This document shows positions 4,734 through 47,825 of a stretch of DNA of 64,000 bases, piece after piece. The notes beneath the pieces were generated by a model. The model saw nothing but the letters and a program-made list of their open reading frames with translations, ran no database searches and was not told the DNA's origin. Each line of letters begins with the position of its first letter. Positions within the stretch are counted from its first letter, which is position 1. The position numbers and the translations under genes are program-made. This stretch comes from Thermodesulfobacteriota bacterium (GTDB lineage: Bacteria; Desulfobacterota; Desulfobulbia; Desulfobulbales; Desulfurivibrionaceae): the NCBI GenBank assembly GCA_040757055.1, contig JBFLXY010000011.1, positions 19,099 through 83,098 on the forward strand. The letters are read 5' to 3'.

Positions 4734-5333
4734 CACCCCCAGGCGCTGCCAGCGTCGGGCCGAGGTGCGCACCGCCGTCCCGGCGAGACGGATTTTTCCC
4801 CTGCGCCGCAGGCGCTTGACCAGTTCCACATCCTCCAGCAGCGGCAGGGGGGCGAAGCCGCCCAGGGCGCGGAAATCCGCGGCCCGCAGGAAGAGTCCCT
4901 GATCGCCATAGGGCAGGCCGAGGCGCGCCCGCAGGTTGGCGAAGACTTCGATCACCCGCAGGGCCGCGCCCTGCCCGGCGATGCCGAGCCGGAAGGCGCC
5001 GAGAATCACCGCCGGGTCGGCCAGCAGCCGTTGTATCTCGGTGCTGAAGCCGGACGGCGGCAGGGTGTCGGCATGGAGGAAGAGGAGCATTTCGCCGCCG
5101 GCCAGGGCCGCCCCCGCGTTCATCTGGCGGCCGCGGCCGGGCGGGCTCGATGCCACCCGGGCGCCGAGCCGGCACGCCGTTTCCGCGGTGCCATCGCTGC
5201 TGCCGCCGTCGGCGACGATGATCTCGCGCACCTTCTCCCGCGCCAGCGCGGCCAGGAGGGCCGGCAACACGGCGGCCTCATTGCGCGCCGGGATGATGAC
5301 CGAGATGGGTGAGGTCTTCGGGGCGGTCGACAT
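4644..5333 (-). CDS. Family-2 glycosyltransferase of the type I recall as TIGR04283 (transferase 2, rSAM/selenodomain-associated)
   Basis: ISVIIPARNE...IIVADGGSSDGT...GRGRQMNAGA...LLFLHADT...LPYGDQGLF...LLEDVELVKRL...TSARRW. The start was trimmed to MSTAPK. Confidence 0.8.
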   Translation of the reverse strand: MSTAPKTSPISVIIPARNEAAVLPALLAALAREKVREIIVADGGSSDGTAETACRLGARVASSPPGRGRQMNAGAALAGGEMLLFLHADTLPPSGFSTEIQRLLADPAVILGAFRLGIAGQGAALRVIEVFANLRARLGLPYGDQGLFLRAADFRALGGFAPLPLLEDVELVKRLRRRGKIRLAGTAVRTSARRWQRLGVLRTTLRNALVLLGFGLGIDPERLARFYRR

Positions 5334-9796: not shown

Positions 9797-10852
9797 ATGT
9801 TGCTGAACGATGGCGCGTCTGCCATGGAAATCGGGGAGTATTGCGGCAGGATTCTCCATGAAGACTGCAGTGATGCGCTTAAAAAGCAGGTGACAGCCTG
9901 GATCGGCGCTTTCCGGGCGATGGAGCGGACCGGGGTCCCGCTCATGGTCTACATCGCGGCCTGGCGTGAAGGCGAGAACGCGATCTGGTACGAGTATGCA
10001 GGCCCCCGGCTCTGCGACATGCTTGGCTGCCGGAGCGGCGAACTGGCGGAGGTTTTGCGCCAGTCGGTGATCGACCGCCGGGAATACCGCTATGCCGACC
10101 CCGGCGCCGAGGTGCTGGAAGAGGTCGTCACCCGCCAGGAACTGGAAGCCTTTCGCCAGGGGCTGCGCGAGGCCGTGCGTCGTCAGGGCGGGGTGGAGGC
10201 CGTGTACAAGGTGGTGGCCGGGGGCGGCAGAACCCTGTGGCTCAAGGACCGGGCCGAGACCAGGGCCTTTGCCGGCGACGGCATTTTCGTCTCGCTGGGC
10301 ACCCTCACCGAGGTGACCAAGGAGATGGAGCAGAAAGACCTGCTCCAGAAAATCGGCTACTTCGACGAACTGACCCGGCTGCCCAGGCGCAGCATCATGC
10401 AGACCCTGCTGGAGATGAGCTTCGGCCAGATGAAGAAGCAGCTCATCCACAATTTTTCCTTCCTGATGCTGGCCCTCGACGACTTTGCCGGCATCCGGGC
10501 GCGCTGCGGCGAGGCGGAGGCCGACCGGCTGCTGGCTCAGGTGGCGGAAGTGCTCGCCGCCAGCAAGCGGCGCGAGGACGAGGTGGGGCGCTTCGGGGGC
10601 GAGGAGTTCTATGCCCTCTCCCATGGCGGCATGGAGAGCGGCCGCGAACTTGCGGAACGGCTCCGGCGGCGGGTTGAGCAGACCGCCTTCGCCGCCGGGG
10701 ACGGCGCGCCCCTGACCCTCACCCTGTCGGTGGGGGTGGTCGAGGCGACGGAGCTGGCGAAGCCGGCCATCGATCCTCTGGTCATGCGGGCGGACCGGCG
10801 GCTGCGGGAGGCGCGCCAGCAGGGCGGCAACCGGGTGGTGGGCGGCGGCTGA
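9797..10852 (+). CDS. Diguanylate cyclase (PAS-like N-terminus plus GGDEF domain)
   Basis: GGEEF active site (RFGGEEFYAL). GGGAGG RBS 6 nt before the ATG at 9797. Confidence 0.8.
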   Translation: MLLNDGASAMEIGEYCGRILHEDCSDALKKQVTAWIGAFRAMERTGVPLMVYIAAWREGENAIWYEYAGPRLCDMLGCRSGELAEVLRQSVIDRREYRYADPGAEVLEEVVTRQELEAFRQGLREAVRRQGGVEAVYKVVAGGGRTLWLKDRAETRAFAGDGIFVSLGTLTEVTKEMEQKDLLQKIGYFDELTRLPRRSIMQTLLEMSFGQMKKQLIHNFSFLMLALDDFAGIRARCGEAEADRLLAQVAEVLAASKRREDEVGRFGGEEFYALSHGGMESGRELAERLRRRVEQTAFAAGDGAPLTLTLSVGVVEATELAKPAIDPLVMRADRRLREARQQGGNRVVGGG

Positions 10853-31896: not shown

Positions 31897-32490
31897 ATGA
31901 TGTTTCGTGCCGTTGGTCTTCTCATGGTCGTGCTGTGCTGCGGTTGCGCTGCGAATATTCCTCAGCCCATGGTGATCGAGCGGGATGGCATTGATGCCAT
32001 TGTGCTTACCGATGACCACAAGGTTTCCTACATCAAGCAGCAGGGGCATATCGACCGGATTTGCGCGGCGGTGGAGGCCGATGCGGTGGCCACGGACGAA
32101 TCGGGGTTTTCTTTGGGATTGTCTGCCCTGGGCAAGTCGGAACGGATCGGGGAGCATTCCGGAAGGGGGGAACTCTCTCTGGGGGGCAGGGATCCGCTGG
32201 TGCTCATTGCCCGCGAGTTTCTCTACCGGGCCTGCGAGATGACCAACAACCTCAACAGCAACGAGGAAAAAACCATCCAAGTCTACCAGATGTTCCTCGA
32301 TACCCTGGAGAAAATTGCCGAGACGCATCCTGCCTATGGAACAGCGCCGGCGGCAGCCGACGAACCGGAGCAGAAGCAGCGCAAGAAGGCAAAGAAGAAA
32401 AAGAACAAATGGGATGATGACGACAAAGACGATGACGACGACAACGATAACGACAAAGATGATGATGACGAAGACAAGGATGACAAGTGA
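31897..32490 (+). CDS. Probable lipoprotein of unknown function with a Lys-block/poly-Asp C-terminal tail
   Basis: Signal peptide MMFRAVGLLMVVLCCGC. Tail KQRKKAKKKKNKWDDDDKDDDDDNDNDKDDDDEDKDDK. AAGGTGG RBS. GC is lower than in neighbouring genes. Confidence 0.6.
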   Translation: MMFRAVGLLMVVLCCGCAANIPQPMVIERDGIDAIVLTDDHKVSYIKQQGHIDRICAAVEADAVATDESGFSLGLSALGKSERIGEHSGRGELSLGGRDPLVLIAREFLYRACEMTNNLNSNEEKTIQVYQMFLDTLEKIAETHPAYGTAPAAADEPEQKQRKKAKKKKNKWDDDDKDDDDDNDNDKDDDDEDKDDK

Positions 32491-32566
32491 TCTGCTGGTT
32501 GCCTGACGTGTGGCGCTTTTTGGAGAATACCATCACTCAATTAATATTGTCGGAGGAGGCTGAACA

Positions 32567-33748
32567 ATGAAAGTGCATTGGTCTGCAAGCGGAGTCGTGA
32601 TGCTGATGCTTCTGGCTGCGGGCAACGCCGAGGCGAAATGGCCAAAGGATTGCGGCAACGAAGGGCAGAAGACCTGCACCGGCCCTGCCCATTATGGCTG
32701 CAAGGACGACCTGGAGAAGTGCGATATGCCGGGGGCCAGGGATGTCTGCAGGAAGAAGGGGGAGTGCCCGTCTGAGTCGCGCAACAAGCACGACTGTCCG
32801 GATTGCGGCCATGATGGCCAGGAGCCCTGCCTCTTTAAAAAGTACTGCCACATGTGTGTTGATGGTCATCACGTCTCCCCGCAGACCGGGAAGTGCACGA
32901 AAACCGAAGGGCCGGTGGACACGATTGAATCCATGCTGCGAAAGGTGGACGGAGACCTGACCAAGGCGGAAAAGGACTGCCGCAAATTCGGAGAAAAGAT
33001 TGAAAATGGCTTGAACGACAAGGGGAAGGAAAAACTGCGGGATCTTCTTGATGCCGCCTCGGTGTCCAAGAAACTGGTGGACGACTCCCTGTACTATGGC
33101 GAACTCGCGGCCACCTGTTATGAAGAGCAGTTCAACGGCATTGTCTGCGGCGCGATCCCCTGGGTCAAGGGCTACAACAAGCTGGCGATCCGGCTCCTGA
33201 ACACGGATCATGACGACGATTTCAGGGACGTTACGAAGGAGGTGGGGAAAGACGCGGTCGAAATGGGGAAGAAATATGTCCAGTATTTCATTCACGGGGA
33301 TGCCTGTAAATACATGGTCGATCCGGTTGCCCGCGCCATGTGCGCCAGTGTCTATACCATGGTGGATGTTGCCAGGGATCCGGTGAACTGCGCAGTCAAC
33401 ACCGTCAAGGATTTGGCTGAAAAGAACAAGCAGGGTTCGGGGCAGAAGAAAAAGCCGGAGAAGGCTGATGTCAAAGATTTTGTCGCCAGCAATTGCTATA
33501 CGGTGGGGGTAATCTCGTTTACCCTGGCTGCCGACCAGGCATTGGCCGCGTTGACGGCGGAAACCGGGGAGGCAGTCGAGCTGCCGAAGGATGCCAAGGC
33601 GGTTCTCAAGGCGGTGAAGACGATTGCCAAGGCAAAGATCAAGTTGGAGCAGGGAGCCGAGGCCGCTGACAAGTTTGATGATTCCAAGGCAAAGCAGGTT
33701 ATGGAGCAGCACAAGAGTTGCGACGGCGTTCTGAAGTATCTCGATTGA
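32567..33748 (+). CDS. Secreted cysteine-rich protein of unknown function (393 aa)
   Basis: Signal peptide ending AGNAEA. There are 12 Cys in the first ~90 mature residues and 8 more in a helical-looking C-terminal part. Strong GGAGGAGG RBS. I recognise no family. Confidence 0.65.
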   Translation: MKVHWSASGVVMLMLLAAGNAEAKWPKDCGNEGQKTCTGPAHYGCKDDLEKCDMPGARDVCRKKGECPSESRNKHDCPDCGHDGQEPCLFKKYCHMCVDGHHVSPQTGKCTKTEGPVDTIESMLRKVDGDLTKAEKDCRKFGEKIENGLNDKGKEKLRDLLDAASVSKKLVDDSLYYGELAATCYEEQFNGIVCGAIPWVKGYNKLAIRLLNTDHDDDFRDVTKEVGKDAVEMGKKYVQYFIHGDACKYMVDPVARAMCASVYTMVDVARDPVNCAVNTVKDLAEKNKQGSGQKKKPEKADVKDFVASNCYTVGVISFTLAADQALAALTAETGEAVELPKDAKAVLKAVKTIAKAKIKLEQGAEAADKFDDSKAKQVMEQHKSCDGVLKYLD

Positions 33749-33807
33749 GTGTTTCCTGGCCAGGGGGAGGATGGCTTCCCCCTGGCTGGGGAAGGGGCGG
33801 AAGAAGG

Positions 33808-34239
33808 ATGACGGTCTTGCTGCGCCGTTGGCTGATGGTTTCTTGCGCTGTCCCGCTTCTGTGCGGATGCGTGGCGCCCGGACAGCCGCGGCCCGTTGGC
33901 GGCGACCGGGATTCCCACGGCTGCATCGGTTCGGCCGGGTATGTCTGGTGCGAGGCGAAGCAGAAATGCATCCGGGTCTGGGAGGAGCCGTGTGAGCCGG
34001 GAGACAAGATCACGGCCTGCTACGGCTGCGAAGGCCTTGGCCCCATTACCGTCCAGTATTTCCCTGGCGATGGCGCGTCCATCCTCGTGAATGGCAAGGC
34101 GTACCGGCTTGAACGGGCGATTTCCGCCTCCGGCGCTCGCTACGAAGGGGAAAATATCATGATCTGGGACAAGGGCGGCACGGCGCGTCTTGTTCTGGAT
34201 GGCGGGGAGTATTCCTGCCGGGTGAGCGCCTGTCCATAG
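33808..34239 (+). CDS. MliC-family (membrane-bound lysozyme inhibitor of C-type lysozyme) lipoprotein with an extra Cys-containing N-terminal module
   Basis: Lipobox LLCGC. [24 protein letters not shown] matches E. coli MliC's [24 protein letters not shown] almost exactly. The start was trimmed to MTVLLRR. Confidence 0.75.
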   Translation: [143 protein letters not shown]

Positions 34240-34260: not shown

Positions 34261-35091
34261 TCAGGATTCCTTCTGGCAACGGGGGCAGAAAAAGGTGGCC
34301 CGCCCGCCGAGGACACGGCGTCGGATGGTCTGCCGGCAGCGGGGGCACGGCTTTCCGTCCCGGCCATAGACGGCCAGTTCCAGCTGGAAATAGCCGGGCT
34401 TGCCGCTGGCGTTCTCGTAGTCCGAGATGGTGGAGCCGCCCATGGCGATGGCCTTTGTGAGAATGGCGCGACTTGCCGTGACAATGCGTTGCCATTCCCT
34501 CTTCGGCACCCCCCTGGCCGGGGTTTGCGGATGGATGCCCGCGGCAAAGAGCGTTTCGTTGGCATAGATGTTTCCCAGCCCCACCACCACGGAGTTGTCC
34601 ATCAGGAAGCTCTTCACGGCTACGCTTCTTCGTCCGGCCTTTCCCTGCAGATAGTCTGCGGTAAATGCCGCGGAAAAGGGCTCCGGCCCGAGTTCGGCAA
34701 AGGGATCGACGGTGCGCAGCTCCTCCGGCGAAAAGAGTTCCACAAAGCCGAAGCGCCGTACATCGTGGAAGCGCATTTCCTTGCCGTTGTCGAGGAGGAA
34801 GTGGAGGTGGTCGTGCTTTCTGCGCGGGGTTGCCGCGGGAAAGAGTGCGATCTTGCCCGTCATTCCGAGGTGAAAGACCATGAGGGCCCTGCTGCTCAAA
34901 TGGACGAGGATGTACTTGGCCCGGCGCGTCACCCTGAGGATGGCGGCGCCTTTGGCAAATTCGTCCATCTTTGCGCGCGGGAAGGGCTTGCGCAGTTTCT
35001 TGTGGCTGGTGGCAATGGCAAGGACCGTCCGCCCCGTCACCAGGGGGGCAAGCCCCTGGCAGACCACCTCGACCTCGGGCAATTCCGGCAT
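34261..35091 (-). CDS. mutM: Formamidopyrimidine-DNA glycosylase
   Basis: MPELPEVE N-terminus and C-terminal zinc finger CPRCRQ...FFCPRCQ. Confidence 0.9.
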   Translation of the reverse strand: MPELPEVEVVCQGLAPLVTGRTVLAIATSHKKLRKPFPRAKMDEFAKGAAILRVTRRAKYILVHLSSRALMVFHLGMTGKIALFPAATPRRKHDHLHFLLDNGKEMRFHDVRRFGFVELFSPEELRTVDPFAELGPEPFSAAFTADYLQGKAGRRSVAVKSFLMDNSVVVGLGNIYANETLFAAGIHPQTPARGVPKREWQRIVTASRAILTKAIAMGGSTISDYENASGKPGYFQLELAVYGRDGKPCPRCRQTIRRRVLGGRATFFCPRCQKES

Positions 35092-35096
35092 GCCGG

Positions 35097-35792
35097 CTAC
35101 CTGGAGGCCAAGGCGTTCGGGCTGATCTTCCGCACCACCTTGGGGATGAAGAAGGAGGCGACAAAGAGGGCCAGCGACAGCAGGGTTTTCCAGCCCAGGA
35201 GTTGCGTCCAGTCCCCCGATTTCCACACCTCGGCCAGGGTGGCGAAGAAGAAGGTGAGGACAAAGCCGCCGGCGATGATGCCGAAGAAGGTGCCGAAGAA
35301 GTAGTCGCGGAAGGTGACCCGGGTGAGCCCCATGCCGAAGTTGAGCGGGGTGAAGGGGAAGAAGATCAGCCGCAGGTAAAGGGTGGTGGCAAAGCCGTTT
35401 GCCGCGATCTTGTCGTCGTAGGCCTTGAGCCGGTCGCCGATGAGGGAGGCGGCGAAATCACGGCCCAGGTAACGGCCGATGAAAAAGGCGGCCGAGGCGC
35501 CAATGAGCGCGCCGATTTCGTTGTAGAGAAAGCCGTAGAGGGTGCCGAAGAGAACGGCGCCGATGCCGGTGAAGAGGGTGGCGGGCAGAAAGAGGCAGAT
35601 GCCCACGGCATAGACGAGGACGAAGACCAGCGGGCCCCAGGGGCCGCTTTCCCGGACAAAGGCCTCGATCCGTTCCGGTGCGATCCATTCCCGGAGGTCG
35701 GTGGCGCGGAAGAGCCAGACCGCCGTCGCCAGGAAGAGGAGGAAGAGCACAGCCTTGATCGCGCCTTTGCGGGAATTCGCTGCCTGCTTCAT
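35097..35792 (-). CDS. TVP38/TMEM64 (DedA-superfamily) membrane protein
   Basis: GPWGPLVFVLVYAVGICLFLPATLFTGIGAVLFG...FFIGRYLGRDF. Its ATG overlaps the stop of the upstream 1070-aa gene (ATGA). Confidence 0.8.
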   Translation of the reverse strand: MKQAANSRKGAIKAVLFLLFLATAVWLFRATDLREWIAPERIEAFVRESGPWGPLVFVLVYAVGICLFLPATLFTGIGAVLFGTLYGFLYNEIGALIGASAAFFIGRYLGRDFAASLIGDRLKAYDDKIAANGFATTLYLRLIFFPFTPLNFGMGLTRVTFRDYFFGTFFGIIAGGFVLTFFFATLAEVWKSGDWTQLLGWKTLLSLALFVASFFIPKVVRKISPNALASR

Positions 35793-38700
35793 GCGCTGCT
35801 CCGCTGGTTCTGGTTGGCCGCCCACAGGGGGCAGAGATGCCGGAGGCACTCCCTGTTCTGCGCCTGCTGCCGGCAGCGGATCGGGAATTCGGCCAGGAGG
35901 GGGATGGGCAGGAGTTCCTGCGAAAGCCGCGCCGCTTCCTGCAGGGCGGTGACACTTTCCCGCTGACAGCAACGGGCGCCGGTGGTTTCCGCGATGCGGC
36001 CGAGCACCCGGGCGGCGGCCTGCTGCGCGAGCTGCCGGGCCTCGGGGGTGAGCGGGGTGGCATTGAGTAGGACGCTCATGCCGATGCCCACGCCGATGGC
36101 TGCCCCGCAAATGCCCCAGAAACCGCAGACCCCGCCCGGCACCTTGCTGCCCCGCTCGATGGCGGCGAGGATGGTTTCCCGGCCGATGTTGCCGCCCCGG
36201 TTGCGGTAGGTGGCGACCATGACGCCAGGCACCAGGGCATGGTGCTCCGGCCCATGGAGCGGAAAGGCCGGATGCTGCCGGATCTGCTGCAAAAGGGCGA
36301 GCATGTCGGTCTCCGTCGATTCGGTGCAGCGCAGCCGGATAATGGAGAGACCGTCGCGCTGGTGGCAATCGTCGCAGATGAAGTGGCCCTGGGCGCAGAC
36401 GCTGTGGGTGGTGCGGGTGCCGCCGCAGTAATGGCAGGACGCGGTGCCGGGCTGGGCCAGGTAGGTGAGTTCGTTGCCGCAGACCATGCAGCCGGCGGCA
36501 TGGCGTACTGGCGTGGTCGCCGGGAAGGGCAGGATTTTGGGGGCGACGGTTTCCGGCGGCGTGGCGCAGCAACCGGTCGCGGACTCAGTCGCCTCTCCTG
36601 GCGTGCTGCAGCAGGCGTTGGCCATGGCGATATTGGTCACCGCGCCTGTTTCGTCGAGCAGCAGCACCGAATCGTCGAGCTCTTTGGCATCGGCCAGCGG
36701 GATGGCGATGCGCTGTCCCTTGACCAGCGTGATGCCGCTCTCGCTGACCACGGCGGCAAAGGGGCCGCGATAGATTGCCTCAGCCGTGGCGGTTGTTGCC
36801 GGTTTCCAGGCGCAGTAGGTGAGGGAGTAAAACTGGACGCCGTCCACCAGCCGGTAGGGAAAGCGTTTGATGAGCCGGGCATTGCCAAAGCTCGCGGCCC
36901 GCAGCATGGCCATGAGTTCCTCCTGCTGCATGGCGCCGCCCAGACATTCGCCGCGGAACCGCGCGTTGTTCTTGATGGCCACCGGGATCGCCCCGTCGGT
37001 GACGATGTCGGAAATCACCAGCCGGCCGCCGGGGTTGAGCACCCGGAAGATCTCGTGAAAGGTGCGCCGCTTGTCCGGCGAGAGATTGATGACGCAGTTG
37101 GAGATCACCACGTCGGCACTGGCATCCGCCAGCGGCAGGGCCTCCAGAAAACCTTTCCTGAATTCGAGATTGTCGTAGCCGAGTCGCTGGCGCACCTCGG
37201 CCTGGGAGGCGCGGGCCAGCGAGAGCATCTCTTCGGTCATGTCGATGCCGCAGACCCGGCCCTGCGGGCCCACCTTTTCGGCGGCGAGGAAACACTCCAC
37301 TCCGCTGCCGCTGCCGAGATCGACCAGGGTCTCTCCGGCCTTGAGGCCGGCATCGCTCACCGGGCTGCCGCAGCCGTACGAGCGCTGGCGGGAGGCCAGG
37401 GGAATGAAGTGGGCCGCGGCCTGTTCCGGGGCAAAGGGATTGACGATGTTGGTGTTGGCCTGCACTGCGGCCTGGGCATAAAATTCCCGCACCGGGCGGT
37501 GTCCGTGGTCGCCGGCCAGGGATACCACGCAGTTGCAGTGGGTGAGGGCGACCTCCCGGCCGTCCGGGCAGTCGTGGCGCACGTCGCCCATGCGGAGCAG
37601 CAGTTCGCCGTCATCCGGGACCGGATACTGCCGTGCCTGCGCGGCGATGAGCCAGAGGGCCAGATCGGCATACATATCCACGTAGGGATCGTGGCCGGTG
37701 AAGGCCCCGCCGGCTAGGTAGCTGTGGTCGAGGTCGTGACCGCCGGTAAGGAAGCCGCAGGGGTTGGCCCGGAGCCCGGCGTTGTCGATGTGCGAGGCCC
37801 GGCGGATGCGGTCGAGCACCGGGCTGTGGCGCCAGGCTTGTTCGAGGCCCTCTGTCACCGGCCCGCAGGCGAGTTCCGCGACCCCCACCAGGGCGGGCGA
37901 GGGGTAGACCATGGAGTCCGGCCCGATGGCCAGGGATTCCCATCCGGCGTTGCTGCCGTCGTGACGGGTGCCGGGCGAGCTGAAGACCTGTCCCTTGAGG
38001 GCCTCGATGTTGTCGATGGCGACCCCCAGTTTCTCGGCCTCACCGTGGGCCGCCAGCAGCACCGGCAGAATCTCTGCCGGCGCAACAAACTGCGCCAGAG
38101 TGCCCTTGCCCCGCACGAAATGCCAGAGCAGGTGGATGTTCTTCACCCCGTGGTCCGCGGCCAGGCTGACCAGGGCCGGCAAATCGGGGAGATTGCCGCG
38201 GTTGACCGCCACCGAGAGGGTGGTCTGGATGCCCTCGGCGCGCAGAAGGCGCAGGCTGGCAAGCAGCCGCTGGAAGGTGCCGGGGCCGCGCAGATGGTCG
38301 TGGCTCTGCTCCAGGCCGTCGAGGCTCAACTGGAGGTGGAGCCGCTCGCTGGGAAGTTTTCTGAGGGTCGCCAGGTGCTCGCCCAGCAGCAGGCCGTTGG
38401 TGAGTACCACCGCATGAGCCCCGGGATTGGCGAGCACATCGGCGAGCAGGGCCGGGAAATCCGGATAGACAAAGGGTTCGCCGCCGGTGAAATAGAAGAG
38501 GGTGCAGCCCAGGTCCGTTGCCTCGGCCATGGACCGGCGCAGGATCTCCGGCGCCAGGGCCGTCTTTTCCGCCGGCGAGGCGGCAAAAAGGCAGTGGCGG
38601 CAGGCGAGGTTGCACTGGTTGGTGAGGTGGAACCAGCATTCCTTGAGGGTATTCAGGGTGAGGGCGTGGTGGCGGCCTGCATAGGGGGGGGGCGCGCCCC

Positions 38701-39001
38701 GGTCCAACTGGGCGTACAGCTGTTCCATGGCCAGCAGGGTCGCGGCCAGGGGCTGGTCATCCGGAGAACGGCGGGCGGCCTCGTCGAGGCTTTCGGCAGC
38801 CTGCATGGCCTGGAGCAGCCGGTCGGCCCCGGGGCCGGGCACGGCCCAATCCGGTTTTTCCGGGTGGAGGTAGATGGGGCAGCCTTGCCAGCTATGGCGC
38901 TGCCAGTGGGGAAGCAAGCCCATGGGAAACCCGCGCGAAGATTTTGTGGTTCCGCCCCGGTTGCGGGGCGCACTTGCTGCACCATAATGATCGCCGGCCA
39001 T
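35789..39001 (-). CDS. Multidomain protein: radical-SAM domain, ArsM/AS3MT-type SAM methyltransferase (with its C-terminal domain), and a Cys-rich C-terminal domain
   Basis: rSAM domain: [14 protein letters not shown]...FTGGEPF (residues ~120-300). Methyltransferase: [37 protein letters not shown], and CC pairs at 797-798 and 811-812 (residues ~505-815). C-terminal domain: CMVCG...CHYCG...HFICDDCH...CC...C (residues ~836-1060). The start is uncertain between M1 and M27. Confidence 0.8.
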
Positions 39002-46036: not shown

Positions 46037-46654
46037 GTGGAAAAGATTGTGGATTGTCGGGGCATGCTCTGCCCCCAGCCGGTCATCGCGACCCGGGACG
46101 CCTTGGCGGCCATGGCGCATGGGGTGCTCACGGTGGCGGTGGACAACGAGGCGTCGCGCAGCAATGTGGAGCGCTTTGCCGTCAGTCAGGGATGCGCGGT
46201 GGCGGTGGCGGAAGAAGCCGGGGTGTTCCGGCTGACCATCACCAAGCCGGGTGGCGCCATGCCGGCGCCCGACGCCGCTGCGGCCGAGTCCTATACCTGC
46301 CCCATCCCGGCTGCCGCCGGCGTGATCTACGTGATTCCCTCCGACACCATGGGGCACGGCGACGACGACCTCGGCCGGCTGCTGCTGCGCGCCTTTGTTA
46401 AGACCATCCGGGAGATGCAACCGCGGCCGGCGGCCATCTTCTTTTACAATACCGGGGTGAGGGTCACGGCCGCCGATTCCGACCTCATCCCGCCGCTCAA
46501 GGAGCTGGAGGCGGAAAAAGTGGCCATCTTCTCCTGCGGCACCTGCCTTGATTTTTTCAACCTCAAGGAGCAGCTGCTGGTCGGCAAGGTCACCAACATG
46601 TACGAGATCATGGCGGCCATGAGCACCGCTGCCAGGGTCGTGAGCCCTTACTAG
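46037..46654 (+). CDS. yedF: Selenium-metabolism protein YedF (TusA/SirA-like N-terminus plus DsrE-like C-terminus)
   Basis: RGMLCPQP (CPxP motif), then SDTMGHGDDDLG...FFYNTGV...FSCGTCLDFF...VGKVTNMYEI. GTG start. Confidence 0.8.
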   Translation: MEKIVDCRGMLCPQPVIATRDALAAMAHGVLTVAVDNEASRSNVERFAVSQGCAVAVAEEAGVFRLTITKPGGAMPAPDAAAAESYTCPIPAAAGVIYVIPSDTMGHGDDDLGRLLLRAFVKTIREMQPRPAAIFFYNTGVRVTAADSDLIPPLKELEAEKVAIFSCGTCLDFFNLKEQLLVGKVTNMYEIMAAMSTAARVVSPY

Positions 46655-46670
46655 GTGCAGGTCTCCGCCG

Positions 46671-47825
46671 ATGTCTGCCCTCCGGTCGCCGGTCTATCTC
46701 GATAACGCCGCCACCTCGTTTCCCAAGCCGGCTAATGTGGCGGCAACCATGGACCGCCTGCTGCGCTCCACCGCCCTGAGCCCGGGCCGTTCCGCCCATG
46801 CCTTTTCCCTGGCCGCCGGCCGGGAGATCTTTGCGGCCCGCGAACTGCTCGCCGCCTTTTTCGGCTGCCCCGATTCGAGCCGGCTGATCTTCACCGCCAA
46901 CGTCACCGAGGCGCTCAACGTCGGGCTCTTCGGGCTGCTCAAGGATGGCGGCCATGTCATCGCCACCGGCATGGAACACAACTCGGTGATGCGCCCCCTG
47001 CGCCATCTCGAGCAGCTGGGCCGCATCGCGCTTTCGGTGCTGCCCGCCTCGCCGGCCGGCGAGACCGACCCGGCCGACTTGGCCAAGGCCTTGCGGCGCG
47101 ACACCCGGCTCATCGTGGTCAATCACGTTTCCAATGTTACCGGCACCGCGGCGCCGCTGGCGGAAATCGCCGCGCTGAAGGGCGGGGCGCTGCTGGTGGT
47201 GGATGCGGCCCAGTCCGCCGGAGTCTTTGAACTGGACGTGGCCAAGCTCGGCATCGATTTTTTCGCCTTCACCGGCCACAAGGCGCTGCTGGGGCCCACC
47301 GGCACCGGCGGCTTTGTCCTGGGGCCGGACATCGAGCTGCCGCCCTTCAAGATGGGCGGCACCGGCAGCGCTTCGGAGTTCGAGGTGCAGCCGGACTTCG
47401 CGCCGGACTGCTACGAAGCCGGCACCCCGAACACCCTGGGTATTGCCGGCCTGGCCGCCGGAGTGGGTTTTGTAAAGGAAACAGGTCTTGCGGCCATCCG
47501 CGAGCATGAACAGGCTCTCACCCGCCGTTTTCTCGACGGCCTGGCGCAGATCAGGGAGGTAACGGTTTACGGGCTGCCGGCCGGCGCCAACCGGGGGGCG
47601 GTGGTTTCCTTGCGTCTGGCCGGAAAGGGGATGGACGAGGTGGCGCACCGGCTGGACCGCGAGTTCCGGATACTGGTGCGGGCCGGGCTCCATTGCGCGC
47701 CGCTGGCCCATCGCACCATCGGCACCTTTCCCGAGGGCACGGTGCGGGTTTCCTTCGGCTTCTTCAATACCATGGCCGAGGTGGACTGCTGCCTCGACGC
47801 CCTGGCCCGCATCGCCGCCAGCTGA
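46671..47825 (+). CDS. Class-V aminotransferase, cysteine desulfurase/selenocysteine-lyase family
   Basis: YLDNAATSFPKP...VNHVSNVTG...DAAQSAG...FTGHKALLGPTGTG...RAGLHCAP. Confidence 0.8.
   Translation: MSALRSPVYLDNAATSFPKPANVAATMDRLLRSTALSPGRSAHAFSLAAGREIFAARELLAAFFGCPDSSRLIFTANVTEALNVGLFGLLKDGGHVIATGMEHNSVMRPLRHLEQLGRIALSVLPASPAGETDPADLAKALRRDTRLIVVNHVSNVTGTAAPLAEIAALKGGALLVVDAAQSAGVFELDVAKLGIDFFAFTGHKALLGPTGTGGFVLGPDIELPPFKMGGTGSASEFEVQPDFAPDCYEAGTPNTLGIAGLAAGVGFVKETGLAAIREHEQALTRRFLDGLAQIREVTVYGLPAGANRGAVVSLRLAGKGMDEVAHRLDREFRILVRAGLHCAPLAHRTIGTFPEGTVRVSFGFFNTMAEVDCCLDALARIAAS

Follow-up and report, generated by a model that had tools for sequence, protein, structure and literature searches.

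We analyzed a 64,000-nucleotide stretch (herein the window) of contig JBFLXY010000011.1 from a Thermodesulfobacteriota bacterium, in which a single gene joins a radical S-adenosylmethionine (SAM) domain, a methyltransferase of the arsenite methyltransferase (ArsM) clade, and a DUF5714 domain. The gene appears to encode a functional multi-module enzyme that belongs to a large uncharacterized family. Our preferred reading, held tentatively and at somewhat under an even chance, is that the enzyme is bifunctional, alkylating and then methylating a soft metalloid bound as a thiolate, As(III) being the likeliest, and that it represents a third independent pairing of a radical-SAM enzyme with ArsM; its product in these anaerobic sulfur bacteria would be a carbon-arsenic or related metalloid compound. 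The radical-SAM routes to carbon-arsenic bonds known so far number two, through ArsS and through ArsL; both are recent finds, and each is accompanied by ArsM.

The fusion is read without interruption from the minus strand, and residues are numbered on its 1070-residue translation unless stated otherwise. Its modules follow one another in the order PqqD/RRE-like domain, radical-SAM core, SPASM fold lacking its clusters, ArsM-clade methyltransferase, flexible Cys-rich arm, and DUF5714:

35789 to 39001, minus strand: whole fusion open reading frame (ORF), 1070 residues at its longest; the probable true start, ATG at 38923, gives 1044 residues.
38657 to 38923, minus strand: N-terminal β-β-β-α-α-α domain (residues 27 through 115), PqqD/RRE-like by the order of its secondary structure in the AlphaFold2 model and by its matches to CteB.
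38072 to 38644, minus strand: radical-SAM core (residues about 120 through 310), with C130-x3-C134-x2-C137, FTGGEP, and a Pfam score of 76.1 bits.
37592 to 38026, minus strand: SPASM-fold domain without auxiliary-cluster cysteines (residues about 326 through 470), from alignment with loci L035 and L034 and from Foldseek.
37526 to 37576, minus strand: junction cysteines, C478 ... H488-C489-x-C491, from conservation and from the position of the N-terminal SCC in standalone ArsM homologs.
36782 to 37504, minus strand: ArsM-clade SAM methyltransferase (residues about 500 through 740), with C544, C570, C636, and C686, and Asn-Pro in place of the first Cys pair.
36626 to 36781, minus strand: ArsM C-terminal domain (AIYRGPF...), from the NF040538 alignment, the β-strands of the AlphaFold2 model, and its occurrence as a separate 72-residue ORF in L035.
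36506 to 36625, minus strand: disordered Cys-rich arm (CC797-798, CC811-812), from AlphaFold2 confidence and conservation.
35804 to 36496, minus strand: Zn-ribbon-like CxxC...CxxC followed by the helical DUF5714, from Pfam, the NCBIfam model MbdU, and a model of the domain.

The first-pass annotation of this DNA, made from its letters alone, had proposed a three-part fusion in one protein, and Pfam places all three parts on this frame: Radical_SAM at 126 through 266 (E = 4.7e-21; 76.1 bits against a cutoff of 29.5), Methyltransf_31 at 554 through 703 (7e-35), and DUF5714 at 890 through 1059 (1.7e-60; 203.9 to 208 bits against 26.2), the last covered over its full profile length. DUF5714 is thus the third, Cys-rich domain that had been suspected of being a catalogued DUF. 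An NCBI protein 100% identical to the frame (P0001) comprises 1044 residues and begins at M27 (38923), a start common to all homologs of the fusion; the real product is probably this shorter form. Its record is titled [quoted passage not shown]; elsewhere in the databases the family goes by “methyltransferase domain-containing protein” and, for the Desulfurivibrio alkaliphilus ortholog in UniRef, “Arsenite methyltransferase”. An AlphaFold2 model of the fusion built from 57 homologs has a mean predicted local distance difference test score (pLDDT) of 83.2 and a predicted template modeling score (pTM) of 0.70.

The window stems from a metagenome-assembled genome, where an assembly chimera or a pseudogene read-through could have joined separate genes; we regard this as practically negligible. 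Conservation was assessed on the 120 best-scoring of 533 matching protein clusters, together with a second set of 36 deep representatives. All of the best 120 have the same three Pfam domains and come from independent assemblies, D. alkaliphilus AHT2 (ortholog at 805799 to 809044 of CP001940) and Thiovibrio sp. JS02, both with complete genomes, are among the carriers, and conservation runs unbroken over both domain junctions. The motif Cys and His residues are invariant across the 120 homologs and so are not there by chance. A literature search returned only selenoprotein reviews and ArsL/ArsS papers, with no paper that mentions DUF5714 or a radical-SAM/ArsM fusion; the description of the fusion as genuine, conserved, and uncharacterized therefore stands.

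A HMMER search with the radical-SAM half over 1.84 billion representatives gave 120 proteins at E ≤ 1e-30, each a representative at the 50%-identity level, from Desulfobulbia, Nitrospirota, archaea, and other groups. When the best 150 representatives were classified by fused partner, an ArsM-like domain was present in nearly all of the sufficiently long proteins, and DUF5714 also in about twenty. Three of the 150 (P0182, P0183, and P0189; 681 to 711 residues) have the reversed order, with the methyltransferase ahead of the radical-SAM domain. This radical-SAM family is obligately linked to an ArsM-type methyltransferase, since nearly all of its long representatives are fused to one, in both orders. 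The PLSDB plasmid collection contained no member of the family, the search returning only distant MftC-type maturases.

By sequence, the methyltransferase half matches the solved ArsM structures 5evj (1e-37) and 4fr0 (6e-35) in the PDB. Foldseek returns 4fr0 (3.6e-18), 5evj, and 8xt7 at E values of 1e-16 to 4e-18, the best PDB matches all being ArsM or AS3MT. [18 protein letters not shown] and GECLGGA lie in register with solved ArsM sequences, which bears out the by-eye alignment of the middle region with ArsM/AS3MT. Aligned with 5evj and 4kw7 (CmArsM), C544, C636, and C686 correspond to C72, C174, and C224 of CmArsM (the numbers 543, 635, and 685 given for them earlier were off by one), and all three are invariant in the 120 close homologs and the 36 deep representatives. 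The position of the first catalytic cysteine (C44 of CmArsM, C32 of hAS3MT) is an invariant I/V-N-P in the window clade, so that this cysteine is indeed missing, as had been noticed; deep fusion relatives and standalone homologs from Nitrospinota have LCCP there. An operational definition of ArsM asks for at least three of the four cysteines (PMC5552862), and the methyltransferase has three. A generic methyltransferase without the ArsM cysteines, an outcome that the first-pass annotation had allowed for, is not what these alignments return; the half clearly belongs to the ArsM clade, with its putative metalloid-binding cysteines kept. In CmArsM, C174 and C224 form the As binding site, and the model for that enzyme needs C44 only for methylation of inorganic As(III); loss of the first Cys pair would thus fit a substrate that is already alkylated.

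The ArsM likeness continues beyond the catalytic domain. The alignment of NF040538, the model for arsinothricin ArsM, reaches the end of that model (query 624 through 799 against model 167 through 356 of 356), and the arm that follows has a pLDDT below 50 over residues 767 through 805 in the 1044-residue numbering. Within this close family, CC797-798 is invariant and CC811-812 is kept at 91 to 93%; tails of like kind (CC or CxC) are found family-wide. The notion that the CC pair after the ArsM C-terminal domain was gained to offset the lost first Cys pair was rejected, since CCP-type relatives end CC-rich too. At the junction between the two halves, C478 and C491 are kept at 91 to 100% in the deep representatives and C489 is conserved in the window subfamily only; these cysteines match the position of the N-terminal SCC motif of standalone ArsM homologs. 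C379, C478, C489, and C491 were considered as a residual auxiliary cluster, a candidate weakened because deep relatives do not conserve C379 and C489 and because C478 and C491 both map to the N terminus of the methyltransferase module.

The radical-SAM half has a different ancestry. The canonical core seen at first reading is present, with CNLACRHC at 130 through 137 and FTGGEPF, and is scored at 76.1 bits by Pfam; the triad C130/C134/C137 and GGEP are invariant in the 120 homologs and in the 36 deep representatives, and the domain is likely active because these motifs do not vary. Ahead of the core, the first ~95 residues of the model form three strands and then three helices, an order fitting an RRE. 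The profile of this N-domain matches the RRE part of CteB (residues 9 through 115) marginally (E = 0.02) and its sequence in the window has no Pfam match; the equivalent domain of deep relatives scores 42.9 and 37.1 bits with Pfam PqqD against a gathering score of 23.4. Foldseek aligns 477 columns with CteB (5wgg) and also returns anSME, PqqE, SkfB, and SuiB, with template modeling (TM) scores for the N-terminal 470 residues of 0.55 to 0.74 when normalized to the target and of up to 0.74 for anSME.

The fold of the SPASM domain has thus been kept, and the seven-cysteine SPASM motif (CX9-15GX4C ... CX2CX5CX3C ... C) is not present in the window protein, nor does Pfam SPASM (PF13186) match it even at E ≤ 10. 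Alignment with L035 (Hydrothermarchaeota, with a Pfam SPASM match) and L034 (Nitrospirota) has every SPASM ligand substituted in the window clade, in accord with the earlier failure to find such a cluster after the core. Across 39 representatives in the order radical-SAM to methyltransferase with both motifs, the number of cysteines in the region is 8 to 11 in deep branches and 0 to 4 in derived ones. The half appears to descend from maturase-type enzymes of the RRE(PqqD)-rSAM-SPASM kind, with all SPASM cysteines lost, because deep relatives carry significant PqqD matches and full SPASM motifs.

Kinship of this domain to ArsS or ArsL chemistry, as the first-pass annotation had implied, was not borne out: it is not ArsS-like and not demonstrably ArsL-like. 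The ArsS model TIGR04167 (cutoff 300) lies outside the 25 best NCBIfam matches of the window protein, all of which score at least 50.9 bits, and Pfam finds no DUF3641, the C-terminal domain of ArsS, in it. The best NCBIfam match of the radical-SAM half is the uncharacterized Rv1681 family (101 bits). Among the matches shown there is no ArsL-named model, and the protein has no CCxxC motif; its other Cys groups are C478/C489/C491 and the CC arm.

This ancestry keeps a peptide- or protein-directed role open, since it includes an RRE-like domain. In such an enzyme the RRE-like domain would dock a Cys-rich peptide, the radical-SAM domain would act on it with chemistry of the thioether, formylglycine, or another type, the methyltransferase would methylate it, and the ArsM cysteines would have been repurposed; the peptide could be a separate precursor, DUF5714, or the C-terminal domain or CC arm of the protein itself. 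We consider this unlikely, even with CteB, SkfB, SuiB, anSME, and PqqE as the best structural neighbors and with Pfam-significant PqqD and full SPASM motifs in deep relatives. The window clade itself has lost every SPASM ligand and any detectable PqqD signature, the metalloid-binding Cys pair and the ArsM signature motifs stay invariant, and there is no room for a precursor: 155 nucleotides lie upstream and an overlapping gene downstream, with no conserved small ORF seen. The first-pass annotation had counted a grouping with peptide-maturase or cofactor enzymes in unrelated contexts as damaging to its proposal, and the PqqD/RRE-SPASM origin bears on that point.

One relative speaks for the peptide-directed alternative in its own way. 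In L035 the ArsM C-terminal domain and Cys tail form a separate 72-residue ORF right after a gene of the RRE-rSAM-SPASM-methyltransferase type; the ORF is homologous to an enzyme domain, which is not typical of a leader-core peptide. It lies at 4993 to 5211 on the plus strand of L035 (Hydrothermarchaeota, JBBSVP010000261.1), 5 nucleotides past the two-domain gene, and its tail reads ...GPCCEGKPC. It could be one part of a split gene or a peptide-like partner, and it is the sole candidate for a precursor peptide seen in another locus.

Genuine single-polypeptide ArsS-ArsM fusions exist for comparison, at 9884 to 11839 of L036 (Omnitrophota) and at 9914 to 11845 of L050 (Planctomycetia). They score 403 and 413 bits, respectively, with TIGR04167 (cutoff 300), contain DUF3641 and Methyltransf_31, and have a methyltransferase 42% identical to that of the window. 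Fusion of a radical-SAM enzyme that forms carbon-arsenic bonds to this methyltransferase clade is recurrent, since both are true ArsS-ArsM fusions. By NCBIfam models (TIGR04283 and TIGR04282 glycosyltransferases), the L050 cluster is one for arsenosugar biosynthesis; further genes in it encode a flavin adenine dinucleotide (FAD) disulfide oxidoreductase of the PRK06370 type and an AhpD-like protein, two genes that it has in common with the fusion locus L001. No TIGR04282 or TIGR04283 glycosyltransferase was found in those fusion neighbor loci whose genes were family-scanned. A Pyr_redox match near the ArsS-ArsM gene of L036 was not counted as support because it adjoins MerT-HMA and is probably a true MerA.

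The bifunctional reading would assign the substrate, the order of the steps, and the roles of the accessory parts as follows. A soft metalloid, most probably As(III), would be held as a thiolate on the enzyme's own cysteines, C478/C489/C491 and/or the CC arm, a proposal made because ArsL offers a precedent: it binds As(III) via a flexible C-terminal Cys-rich CCxxC tail, which carries it into the radical-SAM active site (bioRxiv 10.64898/2026.04.29.721666). The radical-SAM half would cleave SAM and form the first carbon-arsenic bond, and the resulting R-As(III) would move on to C636/C686 in the methyltransferase half, the site of its methylation. DUF5714 may serve as a redox or metal-handling accessory, and the membrane protein TVP38 encoded by the coupled gene (joined elsewhere by an AhpD-like protein and a disulfide reductase of the FAD type) might provide membrane passage and reducing power. 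An ArsM identity with an intact Cys pair, fusion to the radical-SAM domain in both orders, the parallel ArsS-ArsM fusions, the shared redox genes, and the recurrence of VTT genes close to fusions and to ArsM-like genes of Nitrospinota/Nitrospirota would all be consistent with this scheme.

A plainer scheme, which we consider improbable, has the protein methylating arsenite (or Sb, Se, or Te) in the ordinary way for anoxic detoxification or volatilization, with a radical-SAM domain that forms no carbon-metalloid bond and is vestigial, regulatory, or a substitute for the lost disulfide cascade of the Cys44 type, with electrons supplied by its [4Fe-4S] cluster. This agrees with the ArsM identity of the central domain and with the UniRef name of the D. 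alkaliphilus ortholog, the lost first cysteine creates a need for another reductant, and AhpD-like and FAD disulfide reductase genes are neighbors of the fusion in other genomes. Against it, CX3CX2C, GGEP, and many other residues are invariant over deep divergence, which favors catalysis over decay, and the fusion has been retained in both domain orders. Moreover, the CmArsM model predicts that an ArsM without the first cysteine should not methylate inorganic As(III), and there is no ars operon context.

DUF5714 is less readily placed. Its motifs are all invariant: [14 protein letters not shown], CGFWGxCGAAxG, RCC, and three C-terminal cysteines. [quoted passage not shown] A model of the domain alone is confident (pLDDT 89.5, pTM 0.86), and Foldseek found no match to it in the PDB at E ≤ 0.001, the best TM score being below 0.27. 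Fusions that end after the Cys tail occur in Desulfobulbia (L022, L024, and L032) and include all fusions examined from outside Desulfobulbia. Standalone DUF5714 proteins of ~240 residues with all of the invariant Cys/His motifs are found in Bacteroidales (L064, 481 to 1209; L076, 1813 to 2532; L078, 10001 to 10720); their neighbors (sulfatase, S8 peptidase, and β-lactamase) are unrelated and gave no functional lead.

Two genes follow the fusion on the same strand:

35097 to 35792, minus strand: TVP38/VTT (DedA superfamily) membrane protein, 231 residues, ATGA overlap, translationally coupled to the fusion.
34261 to 35091, minus strand: mutM (Fpg), 5 nucleotides (CCGGC) downstream of TVP38, ATG at 35091.

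Both junctions are as first described: the stop codon of the fusion overlaps the start of the TVP38 gene in ATGA at 35792 to 35789, and mutM begins after the gap CCGGC. The TVP38 protein scores 73.3 bits with Pfam VTT_dom (PF09335; gathering score 33.9), and an NCBIfam scan assigned it to no family. Upstream, the fusion is preceded by a 155-nucleotide gap with a divergent promoter; an Rfam scan of the whole window found no RNA family, and hence no riboswitch upstream of the fusion. Neighbors were counted where a locus extended 3.5 kb or more to each side of the gene:

Radical-SAM-type fusions (n = 23): VTT within 3.5 kb at 14, FAD oxidoreductase at 5, mutM directly downstream at 18.
Standalone ArsM-like genes of Nitrospinota/Nitrospirota (n = 11): VTT within 3.5 kb at 8, FAD oxidoreductase at 1, mutM at 0.
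Other ArsM-like loci (n = 11): VTT within 3.5 kb at 0, FAD oxidoreductase at 0, mutM at 0.

TVP38 had been put forward as a dedicated partner of the fusion. Co-occurrence is frequent, at 14 of the 23 well-flanked fusion loci, and not universal; two paralogue types in several arrangements, and the absence of the gene elsewhere, do not sustain the idea of dedication. At least four different arrangements of VTT and fusion were seen. The two VTT types near fusions are 27 to 28% identical to each other: the window type comes after the fusion and is translationally coupled to it, and the second type, beside fusions, is always paired with a Pyr_redox_2/FAD oxidoreductase, the two genes lying directly upstream on the same strand (L001, L023, and L028) or divergently (L027 and D. 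alkaliphilus). The second type also occurs beside ArsM-like genes of Nitrospinota, there without the oxidoreductase, and no oxidoreductase of the COG0398-linked kind is encoded in the window. Pairing of a COG0398 DedA protein with a pyridine-nucleotide disulfide oxidoreductase is the commonest COG0398 association and is unexplained (PMC10127716).

The richest arrangement is that of L001 (124 to 13952; Deltaproteobacteria bacterium RIFOXYD12_FULL_56_24), where a long same-strand cluster runs upstream of the fusion: MEDS sensor, cytochrome c, standalone four-Cys ArsM-like gene, DUF547, an unassigned ORF, G6PDH, AhpD-like (CMD) gene, 6PGDH, VTT, FAD disulfide oxidoreductase, fusion, and mutM. NADPH-generating enzymes there adjoin a probable NAD(P)H-dependent reductase. 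In Nitrospinota (L039, L043, L047, L048, L052 through L054, and L056) a VTT gene of the L027 type, convergent in most cases, flanks the standalone four-Cys ArsM-like gene, whose product has an N-terminal SCC motif. In L039 the gene directly upstream of the ArsM-like one encodes DUF362, and ORFs of similar size occupy that place in several of the other Nitrospinota loci.

The most persistent downstream neighbor is mutM, which follows the fusion directly, or the fusion and TVP38, at 18 of 23 loci. The linkage holds with other upstream genes (rph-tgt-yajC in L084 and L085) and is absent in D. alkaliphilus and L027; it could reflect co-transcription or merely inherited synteny. A syntenic core-genome site, kept next to mutM while upstream genes change, is what one might expect of a housekeeping enzyme that modifies a non-metalloid cofactor, a lipid, or a nucleic acid, with cysteines that bind metal or Fe-S or act as thiols. 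The absence of the family from plasmids (PLSDB) would suit such a role, as would the proposal that TVP38/COG0398 proteins are lipid scramblases (PMC10127716). We rate this alternative as having a low probability: nothing specific points to such a substrate, the protein has the motifs that define ArsM, and its closest fused analogs are the ArsS-ArsM proteins, which lie in arsenosugar clusters. The mutM linkage, moreover, is confined to one order and may be inherited synteny.

Several observations weigh against the bifunctional metalloid enzyme that we prefer. The radical-SAM domain is unrelated to ArsS beyond the superfamily, and its PqqD/RRE and SPASM ancestry is that of peptide-modifying enzymes. 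The methyltransferase scores 233.8 bits against the cutoff of 263 for the NCBIfam arsenite methyltransferase model PRK11873; the standalone homologs also fall under that cutoff (Nitrospinota, 240.9; L001, 208.3). Both accessory parts are dispensable in relatives, TVP38 being absent from some loci and DUF5714 from the two-domain versions. The pairing of COG0398 DedA proteins with oxidoreductases is general, irrespective of arsenic (PMC10127716), and the recurrences among neighbors are drawn for the most part from related lineages, without phylogenetic independence. No arsR, arsC, acr3, or arsB was seen beside any fusion in the loci examined, and the context in the window is one of housekeeping genes, where 5-FTHF cyclo-ligase, a member of the histone-deacetylase family, gatCA, hisC, and cmk flank it in one direction, and TVP38, mutM, and the gene for an HD-GYP protein in the other. 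A bolder version, in which a third carbon-metalloid-forming radical-SAM lineage was independently recruited from SPASM maturases, was hard-wired to a three-Cys ArsM and a structurally novel Cys/His domain, and makes an undetected organoarsenical (or organo-Se, -Te, or -Sb compound), the trait belonging to the core genome in Desulfobulbia and other anaerobes, is in our judgment rather doubtful.

Other features of the window lie apart from the fusion. Between mutM and the HD-GYP gene, three plus-strand genes with lower third-position GC (31897 to 34239) encode a lipoprotein with a long Asp/Lys-rich tail, a 393-residue Cys-rich secreted protein, and a 173-residue protein; the segment looks like an insertion because the HD-GYP gene directly follows mutM in the 77%-identical relative L025. 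At 198 to 1451 on the minus strand, a two-gene module whose GC content is low (about 54%; the window has 65%) encodes a 280-residue protein with a zinc-ribbon-like N-terminal CxxC...CxxC and a 135-residue protein; the pair may be mobile or resemble a toxin-antitoxin system. At a distance of about 7 kb from the fusion (46037 to 47825, plus strand), a gene for a TusA/DsrE-type (YedF-like) protein, syntenic in Thiovibrio (L083), is followed by one for a class-V aminotransferase (cysteine-desulfurase or selenocysteine-lyase type).

If a third radical-SAM route to organoarsenicals were confirmed, it would point to undescribed compounds in anoxic, sulfidic habitats. Environmental “arsM” surveys would then partly count a biosynthetic enzyme instead of a detoxifying methylase, and arsM matches from sulfate-reducer-like bacteria in surveys of methylation in soil and groundwater would need rereading. 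Enzymologists would gain a SPASM fold without auxiliary clusters, DUF5714/MbdU a first functional handle, and the enigmatic link between COG0398 DedA proteins and FAD disulfide reductases a handle as well. Were the enzyme peptide-directed instead, it would be unusual among maturases in being fused to a domain of ArsM type. The chemistry is conjectural; the family is large and cleanly defined and can be tested directly in cultivated strains.

Compared with the known arsenic systems, what appears to be new here is a pairing of radical-SAM enzyme and ArsM whose radical-SAM member is not ArsS and not demonstrably ArsL. With ArsS and ArsM the fusion shares a radical-SAM domain paired with an ArsM-clade methyltransferase, together with FAD oxidoreductase and AhpD-like genes; it differs in that its radical-SAM domain is not ArsS, having a PqqD-like N-domain and a SPASM fold, in lacking the first Cys pair, and in the addition of DUF5714. 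In the arsinothricin pathway, ArsL and ArsM are separate proteins encoded in an ars operon with the permease ArsQ, and BgArsM keeps four cysteines. The proposed logic would be alike, with a radical-SAM enzyme making the first carbon-arsenic bond, ArsM methylating R-As(III), and a membrane protein alongside; the window protein, however, is one polypeptide, has no demonstrated specific sequence kinship to ArsL, and has TVP38/DedA and not ArsQ as its membrane partner.

Set beside ArsM and AS3MT (CmArsM, 4fr0; CrArsM, 5evj; hAS3MT, 8xt7), the methyltransferase shares the fold, the SAM motifs, the YGCG cysteine, the metalloid-binding cysteines of NCVINL and GEC, the C-terminal domain, and the Cys-rich tail, whereas it has Asn-Pro for the first cysteine, stands between a radical-SAM module and DUF5714, and scores under the NCBIfam cutoff. 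The N-terminal 470 residues resemble CteB, SkfB, SuiB, anSME, and PqqE in overall fold; unlike RRE-containing radical-SAM/SPASM maturases, the window clade has lost all seven SPASM cysteines, has no adjacent precursor, and is fixed in fusion to an ArsM-type methyltransferase. In comparison with the paired COG0398 and disulfide oxidoreductase genes, the VTT gene of the window lies downstream and is the other paralogue. Finally, the C-terminal part strongly matches DUF5714 (PF18978) in the DUF5714/MbdU/C_GCAxxG_C_C group; here it is the last domain of an enzyme, whereas in Bacteroidales it is a protein of its own.

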